Positions 33,460 to 43,800 of a stretch of DNA of 46,037 nucleotides are shown in pieces (the stretch's first letter is position 1; the number at the start of each line of letters is the position of its first letter). The translations under genes were made by a program, and so were the position numbers. Origin of the DNA: a phage; the sequence record PZ445465.1. One strand, written 5' to 3'. The notes beneath the pieces were generated by a model. It saw only the letters and a program-made list of their open reading frames with translations, had not been told where the DNA came from and did no database searches.

Positions 33460-33945
33460 TTAGAAGGGTATTGAATCATCGAAGTCTATCGGATGCTCAT
33501 TGCCTCCTTGTATGCTTTGTTGTTTTTGCTGTTGTTGTTGCTGTTGCGATTGTTGGCCTGATTGCTGTCGTGGTTGCTGCTGACTGGAATCATCACGTTT
33601 ACCACCAAGCATCTGCATAACGCCGCCCACCTGTGGAATAACAATCTCAGTGGTGTATCGGTCTACGCCATTGCTGTCAGTCCACTTACGAGTGCGTAGC
33701 TGACCTTCGATATAAACCTGCGATCCTTTGCGAAGGTATTCTCCTGCAACTTCTGCAAGTTTCCCGAAGATGACAACGCGATGCCATTCAGTTTGCTCTT
33801 TCTTTTCTCCTGTTTGCTTGTCCTTCCACTGTCCAGATGTTGCAACAGAAAGATTGGCAATTGCAGAGCCTGATGCTGAATATTTAACTTCAGGGTCGTT
33901 GCCGAGAGTGCCGACAATAATTACTTTATTTACGCCGCGTGCCAT
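33460..33945 (-). CDS. ssb: single-stranded DNA-binding protein
   Basis: OB-fold SSB sequence with Gln-rich linker and C-terminal DFDDSIPF tail (E. coli SSB ends DFDDDIPF). Confidence 0.9.
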
Positions 33946-33948
33946 TTA

Positions 33949-34986
33949 TTAAAATCCTTCAATTGGAGTTGGTTTGTGTTCTGTTTTTTCTTCCTGCGGT
34001 TCTGGCTGCTGTGGTTGCGGTTTAGCCAGTTTTGCAGGATTGAAATTATCCTGCGGAGTTATTACCACAGGAGATAATTGCTCATCATTGATAAAAGACT
34101 CAATGCGATCATATTCAGCGGCAGAAGCAGCCAGAGAAGGCCAGATTGCGCGAATTTTATCTTTCAGGTTATCAGGTATTGATTTTGCTTCTTCCTTCAG
34201 GCCTTCCATGCCTTTTGCTGCAGAAAGCTGAAGTCTTGAGCGCCATGACTCAAACTCTTCGTCAACTTTAACTCCAGAGTCCACCCATTTGATGAGTCCG
34301 CGACCATGCGCCTCGCCAATGTATCCATGACGAACACTTTCACGACCAGACTCAAAGAAGATTGGGCGTAGTTCTTCTGGTAATTTGGTGAACTCCTGGA
34401 TTTTTCCTCCATCGTGCATCATCATGCTCACGGTCATCTCGAACATGAAATCTTTCTCGCACACTGGCTGCAAACCAAGAGACACAGGTTCCTTCGGGTT
34501 TGCGAAATCAGTTTTCTGACGGGCGCGAAGGCATACAATGATATGCATATTGCTTTGCAGCATGGCGTTCATGAACTTCTTGTGTTCAGCTTTGGCGCGC
34601 TTCCAGTCAGCCATCTTTTTACCGTTAAGCAGCGGCTTTTCAGCAATCTCCGTGCAACTGCCTTCACCTTCCCATTCATGCGAACCTGAATCAATAACAA
34701 GAACCTTAACGCCGGCAGCCTGAAACTCTTCAATGGCCTGACGGTAACGGGCCGGGCTGAATGGAGCATACATATCAGCGTGCAGGAATTTGCCATCAAG
34801 GATGTTTGAGTACAGGCGACCGCGACCGTTTTCAGTATCAAGGAATCCGATTTCTTCTGGTGAATCAACCATCCCGCGAGCCAGCTTAAGTGCGCTATAT
34901 GTTTTGCCGCTACCTGACTGGCCTGAAATGCCGATGACCACGCGAGAACCTGAACGCTCTGCTGGTTTAATATTGAGAATACCCAT
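33949..34986 (-). CDS. P-loop ATPase (recombination/replication-associated, putative)
   Basis: Walker A GISGQSGSGKTYSAL; located between exonuclease and SSB; start set at ATG 34986. Confidence 0.55.
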   Translation of the reverse strand: MGILNIKPAERSGSRVVIGISGQSGSGKTYSALKLARGMVDSPEEIGFLDTENGRGRLYSNILDGKFLHADMYAPFSPARYRQAIEEFQAAGVKVLVIDSGSHEWEGEGSCTEIAEKPLLNGKKMADWKRAKAEHKKFMNAMLQSNMHIIVCLRARQKTDFANPKEPVSLGLQPVCEKDFMFEMTVSMMMHDGGKIQEFTKLPEELRPIFFESGRESVRHGYIGEAHGRGLIKWVDSGVKVDEEFESWRSRLQLSAAKGMEGLKEEAKSIPDNLKDKIRAIWPSLAASAAEYDRIESFINDEQLSPVVITPQDNFNPAKLAKPQPQQPEPQEEKTEHKPTPIEGF

Positions 34987-34996
34987 TTGCATTACC

Positions 34997-35185
34997 TCAC
35001 TCAAATTCTACAAAATCACCACCAACCATTTCGACGATAATGAATCCAGATTCATCATCATATGTTGCCTGCCATATAGCTCCAGTTTCGTCGCTTATGT
35101 TAAAGGTACCACCAAAAAAGTCAGCGCTATACCACTCATCTTCTTTAAATCTTTTGCTTGTTGAGCTTGCACAAAATAATTTCAT
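34997..35185 (-). CDS. hypothetical small acidic protein
   Basis: ATG 35185 with GAGGTG RBS. Confidence 0.4.
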   Translation of the reverse strand: MKLFCASSTSKRFKEDEWYSADFFGGTFNISDETGAIWQATYDDESGFIIVEMVGGDFVEFE

Positions 35186-36815: not shown

Positions 36816-37241
36816 TTAATCTACGTCATCCAGCAAGCCAAAATAGAAAAGTGTGGCTTTTTTTAGTTCATCAAGACCGTAAGCGATGGCTGCATAATGA
36901 CCAAGCCTGCACATCTCTGTTAGAACTGCTGATTGATCCTTGCTCACTCTGCTCTTACTTTTGTCACGGCGCTTTGCCTCAATCATTCCGCAGCAGTGGT
37001 TCGCACCCGGAGTCATTATTACGTTATCGCCTATTCCAGGCTTAACCCCCATCTTCTGGCGCTTCAGTACGAACTGGACGCGGCTGGATGTTCCTGTTTC
37101 ATTCGGGACGTGAAACCATAGCACATCAGGGAAACAGTGTTGCATCCATGTACCGTAACCCATCTGGTCAGTCTCCTCTTTTGGGCATTCGCCGCGATAA
37201 CCGCTATCAAATACCCATATACCGCTATCAAGCTGCTTCAC
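36816..37241 (-). CDS. VRR-NUC domain nuclease
   Basis: GMIEAKRRD motif; start assigned to GTG 37241 after AGGAG; no in-frame ATG near the 5' end. Confidence 0.6.
   Translation of the reverse strand: MKQLDSGIWVFDSGYRGECPKEETDQMGYGTWMQHCFPDVLWFHVPNETGTSSRVQFVLKRQKMGVKPGIGDNVIMTPGANHCCGMIEAKRRDKSKSRVSKDQSAVLTEMCRLGHYAAIAYGLDELKKATLFYFGLLDDVD
36817..36827. promoter_or_regulatory. TAATCTACGTC motif upstream of the HNH gene
   Basis: copy of the recurrent motif in the short spacer between the VRR-NUC stop and the HNH start. Confidence 0.3.
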
Positions 37242-39165
37242 TTTGTTCTCCTGCAAAATCTTTTCTATGGATTATGTCGCGACCTTTATCATTAATGCGA
37301 TGAGTGATGCGTTTTGGCGCTTTAATCAATCCAGCATACATCATGAACTGCTTAGCATTCTGGCATTTCAGGATTTTCCCCGCCATTGACTTATCATCAA
37401 GGTGAGGAAAAATAGCCTTTGCCTTGAACATGTTTTTCATGTGAGTCGCACCGCCATATGGGTAGAAAACTTCGTTAGCCCAGCCTTCTTTGCCATCACA
37501 ACGATTAATCCAGTAGCGATACAAAATACCTTCTCCATCCTTTGTTAGCTGGACTTTGAAATCAATAACATCAGCCCACTCATTATCGGTATACGCACGC
37601 TCATTCAGTGCCGCATTCGGGTCGCGCAACACGTGATCGCAATGCCGGCAATAGCGCGCCGTTGGGTCGTTTTTAGTGCCGCATCCATCATCAAAAATCC
37701 GTATTCCGTGCTTATCAAAACCGCAACGAATATAACTGAAAAACTCCTCGCAGCGACCATCTGGCGACAATGCATCTTTGCCAATGCATCGACGCGCATA
37801 TGGGCTGTTCATTGTTCCACATGTATGACACGGAACTTGTTCGCCACTGCGTTTTGAACGTTGCGCTTCAGCTTCTTCCAGAATTGGGTCTTCATATAGC
37901 TGACCAAGCTCAAACATCGTGCCTGAGAAATCAAGAACCAGATGGTTTTCTTTATGATACCCGGCGTCAATTTGGTCTTTCTTCAGCAGTCGCATTCCGC
38001 GACCAAGCAACTGAACAAGAAGGGTGAGCGACATTATTTTTCGCAATATAACGCTTGTATCCCATAGCGGGATGTTTACGCCGGTCGTCAAGCAACCAAT
38101 TTGGAAAACATATTTAATCTTGCCAGTGTATGCATCCTTTAATGCCTTGCGTCTGGCTTTCTGTCCCATATCTTCGGTGACGATCGCATAACTTCCTTCA
38201 GGTAGGTATTTTGCCGCCTCCTGACAGTGCTTCTTGCCAGCGCATGTAATCAATACGCCGTTTCTGTTTTTTGTCAGCTCCATAACCTTGAGCATGATTT
38301 TCTGCGTGAGTGTTCCTTGCTCAAGGATTTCTTTCTGCATCTGCTTGAGTTGCTCGGTGGTAAATTCCTGAACTCCATCACTTCCTGACGCCTCAAATGC
38401 TGACAGGTCGTAATGCAGATCATCAATATCATGAAGACCAAAAATTGTAGGGACAAGAAAGCCATTATCAACAAGGTATTTGGTATCAATATTTATTATT
38501 TCATGCTTCCAGTAAGAACCCTTAATTGACTCAGTTCCACGAAATGGGCTGCCAGTGTAGCCAATAACAATGACATCGTGTCCGTATTTAGCTTTGCACC
38601 TACGGTTAAATTCGGTCATTATTACGCCGTACTGTGTGTCTGAATCTTCTCCAACAATATCCTCCCAGTTCACTTGATGGCACTCATCAACCAAAATATA
38701 TCGTGGGCAAAAGTCTGAAAGTGCACACTTTGAGATAACATTGCCTGATTCATCCTTTATGTCGAAAAGTGAGTTTTTTATTGTTCTCTCCGTCCCAGCA
38801 ATAAGCGGGTATGCCGTTGACTTTCTGCCAAGAGACGCGCTGAAAAGTGAGTTTTTAACACTCAGATTCCATAGCTCTTCCGCATCCTGCTCAATAATTT
38901 CCCCCTGTCTGGCAATAACAAGGCCTTCCCACCCCATATCCTGAAAGCGTCGCGCAATCATGGCAATCATAATGGTCTTTCCAGCACCTACAGATGCCGT
39001 CACAAAACTTGGCTTAGGGTCTTTGCCAAACTTGCGGATAACTTCAGCCGTCTTTTCATAAACCAGCCACTGATATGGTCGCGGCTCAATCTCACCCGTA
39101 TGAACAACTGACCGCAATTTGTCTATATCCAATTCAGCAATCATTGCGTCTATTTTATGCGTCAT
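37228..39165 (-). CDS. SF2 DEAD/DEAH-box DNA helicase with C-terminal zinc-ribbon region
   Basis: Walker A GAGKT, motif II DECH, multiple CxxC pairs in the C-terminal third. Confidence 0.8.
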   Translation of the reverse strand: MTHKIDAMIAELDIDKLRSVVHTGEIEPRPYQWLVYEKTAEVIRKFGKDPKPSFVTASVGAGKTIMIAMIARRFQDMGWEGLVIARQGEIIEQDAEELWNLSVKNSLFSASLGRKSTAYPLIAGTERTIKNSLFDIKDESGNVISKCALSDFCPRYILVDECHQVNWEDIVGEDSDTQYGVIMTEFNRRCKAKYGHDVIVIGYTGSPFRGTESIKGSYWKHEIINIDTKYLVDNGFLVPTIFGLHDIDDLHYDLSAFEASGSDGVQEFTTEQLKQMQKEILEQGTLTQKIMLKVMELTKNRNGVLITCAGKKHCQEAAKYLPEGSYAIVTEDMGQKARRKALKDAYTGKIKYVFQIGCLTTGVNIPLWDTSVILRKIMSLTLLVQLLGRGMRLLKKDQIDAGYHKENHLVLDFSGTMFELGQLYEDPILEEAEAQRSKRSGEQVPCHTCGTMNSPYARRCIGKDALSPDGRCEEFFSYIRCGFDKHGIRIFDDGCGTKNDPTARYCRHCDHVLRDPNAALNERAYTDNEWADVIDFKVQLTKDGEGILYRYWINRCDGKEGWANEVFYPYGGATHMKNMFKAKAIFPHLDDKSMAGKILKCQNAKQFMMYAGLIKAPKRITHRINDKGRDIIHRKDFAGEQSEAA

Positions 39166-39180
39166 AGCTACTAACCTTTG

Positions 39181-39221
39181 TTGATGTTTCTACGTCAGTT
39201 AGCTTATACTCAATCTACACC
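39181..39221. promoter_or_regulatory. divergent promoter/operator between helicase and primase
   Basis: TTGATG-N18-TATACT on the plus strand with GTTTCTACGTC (39186-39196) inside the spacer; CAATCTACACC at 39211-39221. Confidence 0.45.
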
Positions 39222-39240
39222 AACAATCAAGGGTCAATTT

Positions 39241-40194
39241 ATGAGATATGACTGGAAGGAAATCGAGCCAAAAATGATCGGCAACTGGCAGGCTGCCATC
39301 ATGTCTATCGTCAATGTGGATAGCAGAGTTTTCAATGGCAAGCACCAGCCATGCCCTCATTGCATGGGGGTTGACCGGTTCCGTTGGGATAATCACTTCG
39401 AAACAAAAGGCGATGGCGGCGCAATCTGCAATCAGTGCGGTTCCGGCAGCGGCATGAATTGGCTGATGAAACTCTCCGGAATGAGCTTTCCTGAAGCGCT
39501 GGAGGCGCTTGGTGGATTCCTGAACATGCACCCGCGCGAAAAGCTGGAGGCAATCAGGAAGGAGCTACCGAAGATAAATTATAGCGATGACTTCATCACT
39601 GAGCAGGAAGTCGCCGCAATAATGGCTAAAACGACTCGTGTCGCGATGAATGAGTGGACTTTGATAAATGGTATTGGTTGCGACGTTAACGTCACCAGAG
39701 GCAAATCTGGAGAACTTATTGCGGTTGAGATGATGCGAGCTGACACAATGAAACTGTGCAACGTGGCATTCATTGGCATGGATGGTGATTCAATCAGAAC
39801 GTTTTTCCGCGCAGGATACAACAAGGACTCAGCCATCAACGGCAAACTCACGCGCGGCGCGATAAGCCCAATCGGAGAAGACAACGGGAAGTTCATTTAC
39901 CTGGTATCTGATTATGCCGATGCGTGGAAGTGCCATTACTTCACTGGCGCGCATGTCTGGTGCTGCTGGTCGCCGGAAAACATGTGGGAAGTGGTGCGCT
40001 CTGTTAGCAATGAGATGAAGTCACGGTTACGCTGCATAGTTAATTATAAATTTGACGAACTTTGCGCTGCGGAAAACGCAGGGATTCCGGTGATGCTTCC
40101 TGATGATGCCGACACTATCAGGATGGCAAAGAGAATCAGGAGAAAGATTTATGACGCTGGCGAGTTGATAGAAAAAATGTCAGTCAACAGATAA
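39241..40194 (+). CDS. DNA primase (zinc-ribbon plus Toprim-like)
   Basis: CPHCMG...CNQCGSG zinc-binding motif typical of phage primase N-termini; start ATG 39241 after AAGGG. Confidence 0.65.
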   Translation: MRYDWKEIEPKMIGNWQAAIMSIVNVDSRVFNGKHQPCPHCMGVDRFRWDNHFETKGDGGAICNQCGSGSGMNWLMKLSGMSFPEALEALGGFLNMHPREKLEAIRKELPKINYSDDFITEQEVAAIMAKTTRVAMNEWTLINGIGCDVNVTRGKSGELIAVEMMRADTMKLCNVAFIGMDGDSIRTFFRAGYNKDSAINGKLTRGAISPIGEDNGKFIYLVSDYADAWKCHYFTGAHVWCCWSPENMWEVVRSVSNEMKSRLRCIVNYKFDELCAAENAGIPVMLPDDADTIRMAKRIRRKIYDAGELIEKMSVNR

Positions 40195-40195
40195 A

Positions 40196-40225
40196 AGAAA
40201 CCCTCCATATGGAGGGTTTTTTGTT
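40196..40225. terminator. bidirectional rho-independent terminator
   Basis: CCCTCC-ATAT-GGAGGG followed by TTTTTTG. Confidence 0.6.
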
Positions 40226-40640
40226 ATTTCTTGAACTCTGGTGCTTCAGTCCAGAAGGCTACATTTCGCAGAGACTTACTCGTGTGATTGCACCAGTATA
40301 TTCCTGAGTCATCATACTTGGCAGTAACCTTGACGCGATCAGTATCAATAATAACAACCTCCTGCCCATCTTTAGGGTCGAAAAGACGCGCATCCTTCCA
40401 GTTAGCAATCTCATTAAGGGAAAGAAGAACATAGCCTGGAAGATAAGCGCCGACATCAGCAATGTGAACTATTGTTCGCTCCGTTCTCTCTCCTGTGTAG
40501 TCGCCATTCCACTCATAAAGAATAACCGTGTCTCCAACCTTAAAATCACGATCGTTCTTCCTTAGTTCCGCCTTCTTGTGTCCGGTAACAACAGGCCAGA
40601 AGTGCTCAGGTAAGATTTTTAGTTCGTGTGTTTTGCTCAT
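40224..40640 (-). CDS. ASCH/PUA-like domain protein
   Basis: KILPEHF...GHKKAELRKNDRDFKVGDTV pattern typical of the ASCH domain. Confidence 0.55.
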   Translation of the reverse strand: MSKTHELKILPEHFWPVVTGHKKAELRKNDRDFKVGDTVILYEWNGDYTGERTERTIVHIADVGAYLPGYVLLSLNEIANWKDARLFDPKDGQEVVIIDTDRVKVTAKYDDSGIYWCNHTSKSLRNVAFWTEAPEFKK

Positions 40641-42217
40641 TTCAACCCCCTCATAAATCTCATGCGCTTAACAGCAGCAGAAAGATAATTTCTAACCGTT
40701 GAGTTCATTCGCAGTCCATCCCATGAACCATCGCTGCACATCTTAATCGCTCTTGGGTTATCTCTGTCCAGCATTAGTGGTGAATGCTTATTCTCCTCAA
40801 TCGCAAGAAGAACCTCATAAACAAATTTATCAGGTGTTAGTGTGATGTTATTAGAGTCAGCAGAATTAATTATCTTTTTAATTCTATCACGACACAGCTT
40901 GTTCTTTATAACAGACAAGTAAGGCGTTTTAATGAATGCCTGTGACTCACAAATTCGCTTAATTTTTTCTACAATGTTCTCCCATTCAGTATTTTCAAGT
41001 CCATCAAACTCCTGTTCGCCCTCAAGGAATCTTTGCAGACCAGCGAGATGCTCAAGAACCACGATATATCCCCATTCGACATGCTCCATCGTAACTGCTG
41101 GCGTCATTCCACGGCGACTTGACAGATCTGCGTAAGCCGCAAGAGTTGCAAGGTCTACAATCATCAGCCCCATGCGCGGGATAACGTCACCAACAACACC
41201 ATCGCGATCGCCAAGCTCACTTTCCAGTTTCATAGACAGAGATCTGTGCAGCTTTTTCACTTCATCATCAGCCCATACAGCGTTAGTTTTCGCGGTAAGA
41301 ATCCTACCTTTCCACTCATTGATTATTTTTCTTGAAATTGTGCCGCTAACTTCCACATCCTTCATCGCTGGCATTTCCTCACCAGCAAGATGTCCAAGCT
41401 GGAACAGCACTCGCCCCATACCGCCATCTTTCTGCCATGAACGCGCAGCATCTATTCCCTGCTCTGGAGTGACAGTAATCAGCGGAACAAATTTTGCGTT
41501 TTCAATTCCACCGTCTTTTGTTGCAATTTCGTATTCATTCATTGCCGACTTGAGCGCGCGACCAACGCTGTGGTCCATCATCGCAAGGCGCTTATAATCT
41601 ATGACGCCTTTACCATCATCACCACCAGTGAGTGGAACTATCCATCCCTCAGCGCTTGCTGCCGCCATAATGCGTTTTGGGTTTTGTTCCCAAGTAAGGT
41701 TTTCAAGCAACTCCTTTATTATTGGCCTGTTAGGAACCCACACTCCGCCGTCAGTAAGACCTCTATACCACGCCATAGTGCCGCCAAGATATGCATTACG
41801 CGGGTTGTTCCAGTCTTCAAGATGTTGCTTATCATCGTTCACAACGTAGAGCAAAGACCCACCTCCAGCAATAAGGTCTAACTGCATCTGTTTTGTCGAG
41901 GTTGATTTAGATGCGCAAACTCTGGACCCTATTCCCAGCGCGTTGGCATATGCCCTGACGAAACTCACCGGCGCACCCTTACCTGCACCAGAGCGAGCTA
42001 CCAGAAATATGCCGGTATTGCAGATACTACCTGTTGGACCAATCAAATATCGGCCAGCCATCGCCTGAGTAAGGCCCAATGCACCAGTTAAACGATACCT
42101 CTCACCATCATTACGGCGCTCAAAGTTTTTCGCAATCTCATCCATAAACTCACCAAGTGCACCAGGAGCATCCCTATTCATACCCATAGCCATGGACTCA
42201 AAATCAATAGCGCCCAT
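40637..42217 (-). CDS. large replication-module protein of unknown function
   Basis: 526 aa; start set at ATG 42217 (GGAGGG RBS, ATGA coupling); lies in the operon that starts next to the iteron array. Confidence 0.45.
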   Translation of the reverse strand: MGAIDFESMAMGMNRDAPGALGEFMDEIAKNFERRNDGERYRLTGALGLTQAMAGRYLIGPTGSICNTGIFLVARSGAGKGAPVSFVRAYANALGIGSRVCASKSTSTKQMQLDLIAGGGSLLYVVNDDKQHLEDWNNPRNAYLGGTMAWYRGLTDGGVWVPNRPIIKELLENLTWEQNPKRIMAAASAEGWIVPLTGGDDGKGVIDYKRLAMMDHSVGRALKSAMNEYEIATKDGGIENAKFVPLITVTPEQGIDAARSWQKDGGMGRVLFQLGHLAGEEMPAMKDVEVSGTISRKIINEWKGRILTAKTNAVWADDEVKKLHRSLSMKLESELGDRDGVVGDVIPRMGLMIVDLATLAAYADLSSRRGMTPAVTMEHVEWGYIVVLEHLAGLQRFLEGEQEFDGLENTEWENIVEKIKRICESQAFIKTPYLSVIKNKLCRDRIKKIINSADSNNITLTPDKFVYEVLLAIEENKHSPLMLDRDNPRAIKMCSDGSWDGLRMNSTVRNYLSAAVKRMRFMRGLK

Positions 42218-42507
42218 CAATATACCCTCCATACTCGCAAGAATTTGCCAGGGATAATACCTTGTTTCACAGTTACCACCGCACCAGCCCTGTCAGCCTC
42301 AATTTTTATCGCCTTCTGAAGTGACGTCATTGTCATCTGAAAACCTCGCTCTATATCGTATGCGTAGCACCCATCTCTTCCACCAATCAAAATTGAAGTT
42401 GAATACCCGTTCTCAAAGTAAAACTGACACCCATCAGGAGCTGTAAGATTATTTATCACGTCGTGAGCAAGAGATGTCGTGACAGGGAATATCTGAGCGC
42501 AACTCAT
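42217..42507 (-). CDS. hypothetical protein (96 aa)
   Basis: ATG 42507 with GGAGGT RBS. Confidence 0.45.
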   Translation of the reverse strand: MSCAQIFPVTTSLAHDVINNLTAPDGCQFYFENGYSTSILIGGRDGCYAYDIERGFQMTMTSLQKAIKIEADRAGAVVTVKQGIIPGKFLRVWRVY

Positions 42508-42509
42508 AC

Positions 42510-42749
42510 CTACCTCCACCCCATGTGTAACAATAAAATTTCGTCTTTATCAACATTCACCAACACCTTGATACCCATATCCATTGAAACAATACTGACA
42601 TTTGTTCGAAAACTCGGTAACCCCATCGCGCGCGCACGTTCCCAATCTTCACCACAAACAAACCACCCATCATGCGTTCTCCTCAGGCGCTTAAGTAACC
42701 CGTACACCCACTCAAGATTTGACCCTTTACGGTAATTTAGTTCTTTCAT
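42510..42749 (-). CDS. hypothetical protein (79 aa)
   Basis: ATG 42749 with GGAGGT RBS; first gene leftward of the AT-rich iteron region. Confidence 0.45.
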   Translation of the reverse strand: MKELNYRKGSNLEWVYGLLKRLRRTHDGWFVCGEDWERARAMGLPSFRTNVSIVSMDMGIKVLVNVDKDEILLLHMGWR

Positions 42750-42858
42750 ACTTACCTCCATCTCCAGTGACTCTAATTTTATATAAATAAAAAAGATATG
42801 CAATTCTAATATGTGCTGGCTGTACAGTTTGGCTAATTTTTGCTCGATTTATACCGTC

Positions 42859-43248
42859 TTTACCTGGTTTTTACCGTGCTATTTTTGATGCAACTAATTG
42901 ATTAATAAGATTTTACCGGTTTTACCGGATTTCTTAAGTGGTATTTTAATTATTAAGATTGGCAGTGTATTAATTTGATCTAATTTTAATAAACTTAAAT
43001 AAAATCAATATATTAATATGAATGAATAACTTACTTACCTCTATAGAATTTACCGGGTAAAACCGGTAACTCCTCCGCAAGCCGCGCCATTGCTGGCTTC
43101 ATTTTTACCACCTGTAGGTAAATACAGTAGTTTTTAAGTGATAATTGTTTTGGTAAGCTGTTGATTACCGGTGCTTTATTTAAAAAACCGGCATTTACCG
43201 GTATTTTGTGGAGTGATTAATAAGTGCGCAATTAGTCCTTGTTTACCA
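42859..43248. repeat. AT-rich iteron array (TTTACCGG-type repeats); candidate origin of replication
   Basis: nine or more direct and inverted copies of TTTACC(G/T)G or its reverse complement, e.g. 42859-42867, 42872-42877, 42912-42919, 42921-42928, 43049-43056 with inverted partner 43063-43070, 43105-43110/43117-43122, 43165-43172, 43184-43191, 43194-43201, 43242-43248. Confidence 0.55.
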
Positions 43249-43277
43249 GAATCAACAAGTGCGAAACCTAAATAATG

Positions 43278-43306
43278 TTGACGTAGAAACATCATTGATG
43301 TAGATT
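43278..43306 (+). promoter_or_regulatory. sigma70-like promoter TTGACG-N17-TAGATT overlapping motif copies
   Basis: TTGACGTAGAAAC (43278-43290) and GATGTAGATTG (43297-43307); GAGGG RBS and ATG 43337 downstream. Confidence 0.45.
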
Positions 43307-43336
43307 GAACTCATCGGAACAAACGAGGGTGAAGAG

Positions 43337-43522
43337 ATGAACAAAGAAAGCACGTACAGCATCGACCAGATGAAGTTGTTCAGCGATATATGCATGGCAT
43401 TGTCACAACAGGTTCCAAGTCTACCTGCTGATATGCGCTCAAATGCCATCATTGATGCGGCAAACATGATTTGTGAGGCATATGCTATGACTGAAGATGA
43501 ATATAAGGCATCGAAGAAATGA
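43337..43522 (+). CDS. hypothetical protein (61 aa)
   Basis: ATG 43337 with GAGGG RBS. Confidence 0.5.
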   Translation: MNKESTYSIDQMKLFSDICMALSQQVPSLPADMRSNAIIDAANMICEAYAMTEDEYKASKK

Positions 43523-43614
43523 CAGGCGCAGCATTCGAGCTTATCTCCAGTCTGGTTATCGTGGCATTCATCATTATCGCAGTGGCGGTTTCTAAATCAG
43601 GGTATAAGGAGTAA
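43519..43614 (+). CDS. small hydrophobic peptide (31 aa)
   Basis: unlisted ORF with ATGA overlap; single hydrophobic helix. Confidence 0.3.
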   Translation: MTGAAFELISSLVIVAFIIIAVAVSKSGYKE

Positions 43615-43617
43615 CAA

Positions 43618-43800
43618 ATGGCAAAGACTATCTATCGTCGCGAGAAACTGGAGCCTGAACTCGGTCACGTTGGCGCGCAAAACTTTATGAGCAAGCAGGC
43701 ACGCAATGCAATGGAATCTATACGCGTGAATCGCGTTGTGCGCGTGTTTAACGGTGAAGGTAAGCGAAGAGTAATGGATGAACTGATTATCGTATTTTGA
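43618..43800 (+). CDS. hypothetical protein (60 aa)
   Basis: AAGGAG RBS 6 nt upstream of ATG 43618. Confidence 0.5.
   Translation: MAKTIYRREKLEPELGHVGAQNFMSKQARNAMESIRVNRVVRVFNGEGKRRVMDELIIVF

Follow-up and report, generated by a model that had tools for sequence, protein, structure and literature searches.

We found that a 526-residue protein encoded in a 46,037-nucleotide stretch of phage DNA (sequence record PZ445465.1; "the window" below means this whole stretch) is likely to be the AAA+ replicative helicase of the phage, a stand-alone and diverged member of the DUF3987 family that is distantly MCM-like. We put the probability of this assignment at about 0.75. It is based on homology, predicted fold, conserved catalytic residues and gene context. 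The initial annotation, which had been made from the DNA letters, described the protein as uncharacterised and proposed it as a candidate initiator or replisome-organising protein; the second of these roles is supported here by homology, fold and context, more specifically as that of a DUF3987-type, MCM-like helicase, and the homology that was detected is to replicative proteins rather than to proteins of non-replicative function.

Homology, predicted fold and catalytic motifs

Full-length homologues of the protein were present in 10 GenBank phage records (34-99.8% identity) as well as in metagenomic contigs, and thus the gene is real rather than a chance open reading frame (ORF). The carriers form a small siphovirus group that includes Escherichia phages Bas80, ZCEC08, Bas81, ASO78B and swi2 and Klebsiella phages BUCT541, KpnS_VR6602 and KLB16, and the gene is annotated as "hypothetical protein" in all ten records. 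Searches with the single protein gave no match in Pfam (E<=10), NCBIfam or PADLOC. When the PDB sequences were searched with the single sequence and with a profile, the sole match was a designed "phosphate-loop protein" (E=0.04), located at the P-loop. PHROGs returned one match, phrog_3022 ('DNA primase', E=2.7e-14), limited to positions 356-712 of 788, which represent the helicase half of primase-helicase fusions.

Word-indexed homologue searches were too insensitive for this family and recovered only 6-8 proteins, even with a profile. An exhaustive search of 1.84 billion representative proteins with a family profile built from the seven closest sequences identified 48 proteins (L and P numbers below are our own labels for loci and proteins). 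The close matches were stand-alone proteins of 480-560 residues. The distant matches were proteins of 600-1150 residues that aligned through their C-terminal halves, and their N-terminal parts contained Prim-Pol, PriCT_2, NrS-1 HBD, RepB primase or DnaB_N domains. More than half of the distant matches (16 of 28) carried Pfam DUF3987 (PF13148; best E=2.7e-12). Both groups were bridged by P0022, which matched the window-family profile with E=5e-8 and scored 40.5 bits on PF13148 (cutoff 27). In the relatives, the PF13148 match covered model positions ~193-362 only, equivalent to residues ~240-415 of the 526-residue protein, and this region lay inside the stretch that aligned to the window-family profile. 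By transitive homology, fold and context, the protein belongs to the DUF3987 superfamily.

Taken at face value, the PHROG label would make the protein a DNA primase, a reading that we reject as extremely improbable. The matched part of phrog_3022 is shared with stand-alone proteins and lies C-terminal to Prim-Pol/PriCT in the fusions, the fold is AAA+, and Pfam found no archaeo-eukaryotic primase (AEP)/Prim-Pol, TOPRIM or Zn-ribbon domain in the 526-residue protein; moreover, a separate Zn-ribbon primase is encoded next door. The label 'DNA primase' is also carried by phrog_33132, phrog_25777 and phrog_10514, yet all four families were matched by stand-alone proteins consisting of the AAA+ helicase module, among them P0018 (496 residues), which matched the 495-position phrog_33132 from end to end. 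Since the label derives from the fused members, it misleads automatic annotation.

Analysis of conservation in an alignment of 44 sequences allowed us to assign a set of AAA+ motifs (Table 1). G79 and K80 of the P-loop were invariant in 43 of 43 aligned relatives (one fragment had a gap there). The initial annotation was right that GAGKGAP is not a canonical Walker A motif, as it differs from GxxxxGK[ST]; its statement that no motif could be assigned did not stand, because the alignment of relatives shows GAGKGAP to be the conserved P-loop of the family. In the Walker B motif, column 127 was Asp in 41 of the 44 sequences and column 128 was either Glu or Asp in all of them. The arginine-finger motif GGMGR aligned with GFFAR of YfjI in the hhalign comparison. 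The order of the motifs, together with the five core strands of the structural model, is consistent with a predicted AAA+ ATPase. The same unusual form of the P-loop (SGFGKG) was observed in N4 gp43 (L006:15315-17462, 715 residues), which we take to be dns, an essential replication protein placed in DUF3987 by Kazlauskas et al.

An AlphaFold model computed with an alignment of 7 sequences had a predicted local distance difference test (pLDDT) score of 46 and was discarded, and one computed with 15 diverse sequences was used instead (pLDDT 89.3; predicted template modelling score, pTM, 0.75). In this model, only ~60 helical residues precede the ATPase core. The C-terminal domain was predicted to contain helices at 408-423, 434-441, 445-455 and 462-474 followed by a beta-hairpin at 481-493, an arrangement compatible with a winged helix. 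Foldseek, which the initial annotation had named as a check, placed MCM subunits (human, yeast, Xenopus, C. elegans and archaeal) in all of the top 16 positions among PDB structures, followed by ChlI, dynein and ComM. All of these proteins belong to the same AAA+ clade. The top PDB matches included no Clp, RFC, DnaA, Orc/Cdc6, DnaC or RecA-type helicases, and no DnaB or gp4 chain was found within the top 50. Among the viral models of BFVD there were 49 matches at E<=1e-3, many of them to proteins named 'DUF3987 domain-containing'. They also included a 'Replicative DNA helicase' of Salmonella phage LPSTLL (A0A8E3ZZ84; template modelling (TM) score 0.75/0.79, 18% identity, E=1e-18), primase/polymerase fusions of Serratia phage Eta, Pantoea phage LIET2 and Brucella phage Pr, and a TOPRIM fusion.

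Several observations weigh against the assignment. First, even at E<=10, PF13148 missed the 526-residue protein and three close relatives (P0002, P0004 and P0005), and a relative with 30% identity (P0012) reached only E=0.01 and 15.5 bits. In the close relatives within the clade that are matched, the model covers the C-terminal half only; the half that contains the helical insertion was unmatched by it in any relative. Second, direct comparison of profiles with the YfjI branch was marginal. With hhalign, the 15-sequence profile showed no significant similarity to E. coli YfjI, either alone or as an alignment, and the 44-sequence profile gave a marginal match to the YfjI family (probability 50%, E=1.6e-4) over residues 237-482 only, with the motifs in correct register; comparison of the family with N4 gp43 and YfjI by hidden Markov models was likewise not significant. 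Third, the structural matches to MCM subunits were weak (E 5e-3 to 0.2, TM ~0.3, probability 0.6-1.0, identity 6-11%). Fourth, the residue after the P-loop Lys is Glu, Asp, Gly, Gln, Ser or Asn in the family and Gly, not Ser or Thr, in the 526-residue protein, and the first Walker B acid is replaced by Asn (VVNDD) in this protein and its closest relatives. Because of this Gly, at a position that varies across the clade, and this Asn, competence as an ATPase can only be predicted. In addition, a superfamily 2 (SF2) helicase is also encoded by the phage and could in principle act at the fork. To our knowledge, no member of this subclade has been studied experimentally.

Some of these features would also fit a protein that only binds the origin and acts as a loader or initiator, marking and remodelling it in a way similar to Orc1/Cdc6 or DnaA, does not translocate, and leaves unwinding to the SF2 helicase (37228-39165) or host DnaB. 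Orc1/Cdc6 proteins likewise have a C-terminal winged helix after their AAA+ module, the Walker A motif is deviant, a second helicase gene is present and the gene adjoins repeats. However, it was the MCM clade and not Orc/Cdc6, DnaA or DnaC that headed the structural matches, and the invariant arginine finger and sensor 2 are what would be expected for a ring motor. Furthermore, homologues in primase fusions occupy the place of known helicase domains (PMC5862659), and the characterised DUF3987 protein AgaPH unwinds DNA (PMC11724360). We therefore regard a purely loading or initiating role as quite unlikely.

As for the bridging protein P0022, its gene lies on a 10.5-kb contig (SRR15218861_50; L015), and similar contigs of 10-20 kb were observed in ~24 samples. 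They carry portal, protease-capsid and Nu1-like small terminase genes and a downstream 650-bp region full of ATAATTA repeats, and look like a satellite that forms capsids, or else a very small phage, with a helicase of this family.

Leftward gene unit and replication genes

In the program-made list, the ORF at 40637..42232 on the minus strand comprises 531 residues from its first ATG. The coding sequence that starts at the second ATG (42217) gives the 526-residue protein, and the alternative ATG at 42232 would add 5 residues. A GGAGGG ribosome-binding site is located 8 nucleotides 5' of the second ATG, this ATG has one base in common with the TGA of the upstream ORF (TGATG), and the start of Bas80_0077 in Escherichia phage ChristineMuster_Bas80, a gene with 99.9% identity, is annotated at the same ATG. 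On these grounds the second ATG is the better start.

The helicase gene is part of a leftward unit of four genes (42749->42510, 42507->42217, 42217->40637 and 40640->40224), each preceded by a GGAGG-type ribosome-binding site. The unit starts ~55 bp from a repeat-rich intergenic region (42804-43336) and ends at a terminator-like hairpin (40195-40222). What the initial annotation had said about the gene agreed well with these results. Its ORF at 40637-42217 is real, judging from the ribosome-binding site, the overlapping junctions, the Bas80 start and the full-length homologues; the helicase is the largest product of the unit; an ASCH gene does lie downstream of it (40224-40640; Pfam DUF3850 E=1e-19, ASCH E=1.8e-5); and the operon begins next to an AT-rich, ten-repeat region that is a candidate origin. 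Two direct repeats that had been considered as regulatory elements were rejected, as they correspond to the Shine-Dalgarno regions of consecutive genes.

The 96-residue ORF just upstream of the helicase gene is conserved, with 26-29% identity to the equivalent ORF in swi2, BUCT541 and L008. In L010, L011 and L012 its place is taken by ORFs of comparable size; no counterpart was found in KLB16 and L013, which have both the repeats and the helicase. Its product had no Pfam, PHROG or NCBIfam match and might act in loading, origin binding or regulation. For the 79-residue product of the first gene no homology was found, including no similarity to swi2 gp22, and the gene is absent at this position in swi2. 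The ASCH gene is not a conserved partner, and unrelated small genes occupy its place in relatives.

A DnaG-type primase gene (39178-40194; Pfam Zn_Ribbon_Prim 4.7e-10; phrog_510 'DNA primase' 1.2e-79) converges with the leftward unit, and only the ASCH gene and the terminator separate it from the helicase gene. The same convergent arrangement was observed in swi2, BUCT541, L008, L010 and L016 (OR881364). Beyond the primase follow, in order, the SF2 helicase, a VRR-NUC-like gene, an HNH-AP2 endonuclease, an exonuclease VIII-like nuclease, an AAA_24 (Sak4-like) protein and SSB. From the small ORF through the helicase, the convergent Zn-ribbon primase, the SF2 helicase, the VRR-NUC-like gene and exonuclease VIII to the recombinase, gene order is kept in swi2, BUCT541, L008 and L010, and also in phage OR881364, where identity of the helicase falls to 18%. 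The same kit, including a helicase (gp49) that can be recognised as DUF3987, is present in Pantoea phage AAS23 (PMC8004638). This conserved gene order and the presence of the same kit in AAS23 led us to read the protein as the replicative helicase that probably works with the neighbouring DnaG-type primase. The AAA_24 (Sak4-like) protein, encoded with SSB (region 33460-35004, minus strand), is labelled hypothetical in Bas80 and recombinase in swi2.

The same context bears on whether the protein might be a non-replicative ATPase, for instance one that serves in defence, anti-defence, packaging or regulation. The P-loop is non-canonical and all GenBank records say hypothetical, which would leave room for such a role; however, PADLOC gave no match, the gene lies in a replication/recombination module in all relatives, the terminase genes are located elsewhere in the genome, away from the helicase, and the homologues are primase fusions. 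Such a function is highly improbable.

With regard to DNA synthesis, no DNA polymerase was found in the Bas80 annotation or in ten further large ORFs that were scanned for domains; the paper on phage ZCEC08 (95.6% identical) lists a 'DNA polymerase (ORF 37)'. As no polymerase gene was found, the helicase-primase pair would have to recruit a host polymerase.

We infer the oligomeric state, the helicase activity and its polarity, the interaction with the primase and the use of a host polymerase from these data as follows. By analogy with relatives, the 526-residue protein would form a ring, presumably a hexamer, in which ATP would be hydrolysed at the subunit interfaces, with K80 of the P-loop and D128 of Walker B contributed in cis and R269 in trans. 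The ring would unwind the phage DNA, the DnaG-type primase from the neighbouring gene would prime the unwound strands, and the helicase-primase pair would then recruit the host polymerase.

Repeat region and possible origin recognition

The divergent intergenic region upstream of the unit may serve as an origin and/or an operator region. It contains ten TTTACCGG-type sites between 42859 and 43249, in both orientations and in three clusters, some of them 9-11 bp apart. One inverted TTTACCGG pair is located at 43049-43070 and is followed by the motif CTCCTCYGCAAGCC, which was also found in BUCT541. Over the whole window, 46 matches to TTTACCGG (<=1 mismatch) were detected vs 23 +/- 5 expected, and 10 of the 46 matches, as well as four of the five exact copies, fall in this region. 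Between the repeats is an AT-rich core (42933-43044, 81% AT), and the AT-richest 100 nucleotides of the window (42931-43040, 83% AT) lie between repeat clusters. The layout looks like iterons plus a DNA-unwinding element. GC skew was dropped as evidence for an origin: its cumulative minimum near 43 kb coincides with a switch in transcription direction and is thus uninformative.

A similar layout was observed in relatives. In all 10 relatives examined, down to 18% identity, the helicase gene is directly downstream of a non-coding region of 400-840 bp, with 0-2 tiny ORFs between them. Short repeats are present in nine of these regions, usually around an AT-rich stretch, and L012 has weak repeats only. 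The repeat sequence differs between lineages (Table 1). The coding sequence (gp08) that the BUCT541 annotation puts over the repeat array is probably spurious. In L011 (3070-4000, on the contig with P0009), several tRNA-like repeats with shared ...CCAACTGAGCTAAG... arms occur in the non-coding DNA that precedes the helicase unit, and a tRNA cluster thus lies beside the putative origin region of that phage. On the rightward side of the repeat region in the window, a DUF7540 protein of 60 residues (43618-43800, plus strand; Pfam E=1e-32) is conserved in swi2 (97%), BUCT541 (53%) and L008 (38%), and these identities do not follow repeat type. The small upstream ORFs were tested as recognisable DNA binders, and no family could be assigned.

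Comparison of the window with swi2 revealed that the nucleotide flanks are 82-94% identical on the left and 85-88% on the right, whereas in 40289-43606, a stretch that includes ASCH, helicase, both small ORFs and the repeats, similarity is reduced to scattered patches of 68-74%. At the protein level, identity is 93% for the primase, 52% for the helicase and 26% for the small ORF. Because this region diverges as one cassette between near-identical flanks, repeats, small ORFs and helicase behave as a replicon module that can be exchanged.

Within the helicase, the AAA+ part is closest to BUCT541 (identity 0.62 vs 0.49 for swi2), and for residues 385-475 the order is reversed (swi2 0.63, L008 0.57, BUCT541 0.46). 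This C-terminal segment thus seems to parallel repeat type, with the phages that share TTACCGG grouping together, although the parallel, drawn from sequence comparison, is suggestive but weak.

These findings raise the possibility that the same protein also recognises the origin, which would extend rather than replace its assignment as a replicative helicase. The winged-helix-like domain or the basic tail would bind the TTTACCGG repeats, and the protein would assemble on the AT-rich core and melt it, loading itself in a manner analogous to P4 alpha, papillomavirus E1 or SV40 large T antigen. This could account for the position of the gene downstream of a non-coding region in all ten relatives, with repeats in all except L012, and for the AT-rich stretch between the repeat clusters; it would also suit L013 and KLB16, which lack the small upstream ORF, the divergence of repeats, small ORFs and helicase as one cassette, and the grouping of segment 385-475 with the TTACCGG phages while the AAA+ part groups with BUCT541. 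On the other hand, no sequence-specific DNA-binding domain could be demonstrated in the protein. The covariation is modest (0.46 vs 0.57-0.63 identity) and comes from a single switch of repeat type, and L010 keeps TTACCGG despite a more diverged C-terminal domain. Helix 462-474, which precedes the beta-hairpin, is acidic and hydrophobic and would be an atypical recognition helix, and the C-terminal winged-helix domain of MCM is not a sequence-specific binder. Moreover, a regulator could use the repeats, which are located in a divergent promoter region, as its operators, and alternative binders are available in the DUF7540 protein and in the ORF at 42217-42507, the latter being an equally good candidate. 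Overall, we consider recognition of the origin by the helicase a tentative possibility of rather low probability.

In its full form, this tentative scheme would make the protein a self-loading, origin-specific MCM-like initiator: reading the repeats of each lineage (TTTACCGG here, AGTTCCCG in BUCT541, GGATATCC in OR881364) would fall to its C-terminal domain, and the ring, possibly helped by the 96-residue orphan, would need no separate loader to assemble on the AT-rich core and would then recruit the primase and a host polymerase. If true, it would be a counterpart of E1 and large T antigen on an MCM-like scaffold in a bacterial virus, and the swappable module would define replicon specificity in this phage group.

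Table 1. Features of the helicase protein (residue numbers of the 526-residue form), its gene neighbourhood and the corresponding repeat regions of relatives; positions refer to the window unless another locus is given
Feature	Position	Strand	Description
Helicase gene	40637..42217	-	526 residues
Deviant Walker A/P-loop	41975..41998	-	residues 74-81, ARSGAGKG; family pattern [ST][GA]xGK[EDGQSN]
Walker B	41831..41854	-	residues 122-129, LLYVVNDD; hydrophobic strand (121-127 in model), then acidic residues
Helical insertion	41498..41830	-	~110 residues (130-240) with short beta-hairpin ~195-207; between Walker B and sensor 1 in model
Sensor-1 strand end	41468..41482	-	residues 246-250, LITVT; T250 in 36/44; end of model strand 242-249
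Arginine-finger motif	41411..41425	-	residues 265-269, GGMGR; G265 and R269 in 44/44
Candidate sensor 2	41174..41176	-	R348, 44/44; model helix 341-363 in helical lid domain (residues 296-399)
C-terminal helix-helix-helix-hairpin domain	40733..41005	-	residues 405-495; winged-helix-like, from model secondary structure
Basic terminal helix	40640..40702	-	residues 506-526; from model
DnaG-type primase	39178..40194	+	Zn ribbon and TOPRIM region; convergent with helicase unit; exact start uncertain
Bidirectional terminator-like hairpin	40195..40222	.	12-bp stem, then T run, both strands; between leftward unit and convergent primase gene
ASCH/DUF3850 gene	40224..40640	-	Pfam DUF3850 1e-19; start overlaps helicase stop codon (ATGA)
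ORF, 96 residues	42217..42507	-	Shine-Dalgarno GGAGG before ATG; translationally coupled to helicase start
First gene of leftward unit, 79 residues	42510..42749	-	Shine-Dalgarno GGAGG; Bas80_0079
Divergent intergenic region	42804..43336	.	ten TTTACCGG-type repeats; candidate origin and/or operator region
Equivalent region, swi2	L004:5057-5600		repeat AGTTACCGG
Equivalent region, BUCT541	L007:2617-3103		repeat AGTTCCCG
Equivalent region, L008	L008:4217-4735		repeat AGTTACCGG
Equivalent region, L010	L010:2382-2929		repeat TTTTACCGG
Equivalent region, OR881364	L016:3721-4244		repeat GGATATCC
Repeat, L011			TTTACCTG plus TGATCCGG
Repeat, L013 and KLB16			TTTACCAT / TTTACTA
Repeat, L017			TTACCAA

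Comparison with known helicases and significance

DUF3987 was classed as superfamily 6 (SF6), distantly related to MCM, and predicted to be replicative in 2016 by Kazlauskas et al., and its members were reported to end in a winged helix-turn-helix domain (PMC4889955). One of them, AgaPH (PriCT-DUF3987), was shown to be oligomeric, to act as an ATP-dependent helicase with 5'-3' polarity and to bind its primase, and it has "some variation" in Walker A (PMC11724360). With DUF3987/SF6 proteins (PF13148; E. coli CP4-57 YfjI, AgaPH), the 526-residue protein shares the AAA+ catalytic set (Walker A Lys, Walker B acid, sensor 1, arginine finger of the form Gxx[GA]R and sensor 2, the last being a conserved Arg in a helical lid), a C-terminal domain predicted to be winged-helix-like, and a gene beside, or fused to, a primase. 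Unlike them, it is invisible to the Pfam model, which matches in its clade by the C-terminal half alone (model ~193-362). In this clade, Glu, Asp, Gly or Gln rather than Ser or Thr follows the P-loop Lys. The 526-residue protein lacks the PriCT domain and is not fused to a primase, and the primase with which it is paired is of the DnaG type, not an AEP. In YfjI, ~106 residues separate K76 of the P-loop from D182-E183 of Walker B, whereas the large insertion of the 526-residue protein follows Walker B.

Two stand-alone helicases of related siphoviruses can also be compared. The AAS23 helicase gp49 shares the kit of Zn-ribbon primase, SF2 helicase, VRR-NUC, exonuclease VIII and recombinase (PMC8004638), and the LPSTLL helicase superposes over its whole length (TM 0.75/0.79), with an identity of only 18%. 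Both of these proteins are recognised by standard domain searches, whereas the 526-residue protein is not.

The MCM helicases, which provided the best matches among solved structures, share with it the order of AAA+ elements, a C-terminal winged helix (putative in the 526-residue protein) and a probable replicative role at the fork. However, the 526-residue protein has no N-terminal OB-fold/Zn domain and no Pfam MCM match, and identity is 6-11%; the polarity of MCM is opposite to that of the characterised DUF3987 helicase (5'-3', PMC11724360). Since the N-terminal OB/Zn domain is lacking, the protein is MCM-like in fold and not an MCM. It is not of the DnaB/T7 gp4 type (superfamily 4, RecA fold) either, having neither a DnaB_C match nor a structural match to this group among the top 50. 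The origin-binding primase/helicases of satellites and small replicons (P4 alpha, with papillomavirus E1 and SV40 large T antigen as mechanistic analogues) resemble it in the placing of the helicase gene beside an iteron and AT-rich region, in a module that related genomes swap as a whole; in contrast, these are superfamily 3 helicases of a different AAA+ clade with a demonstrated origin-binding domain, and origin binding is conjectural for the 526-residue protein.

Conceptually the result is nothing new, given that DUF3987 helicases beside primases were predicted in 2016 and one was characterised in 2025; what is described here is a diverged member. Its significance lies first in the phages themselves. 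A function is given to a gene that is called "hypothetical" in all ten GenBank records, including those of two BASEL-collection phages and of phages proposed for therapy, and the replication kit of the Swiduovirus-like group is completed, with helicase, primase, SSB and recombination genes and no DNA polymerase found. Second, it shows that an entire subclade, with a P-loop of the form GK[E/D/G], is missed by the Pfam DUF3987 model or mislabelled in PHROGs ("DNA primase"). Finally, the helicase together with its lineage-specific repeats offers a tractable system for the targeting of an MCM-like helicase to the origin of a bacterial virus and for the capture of a host polymerase.

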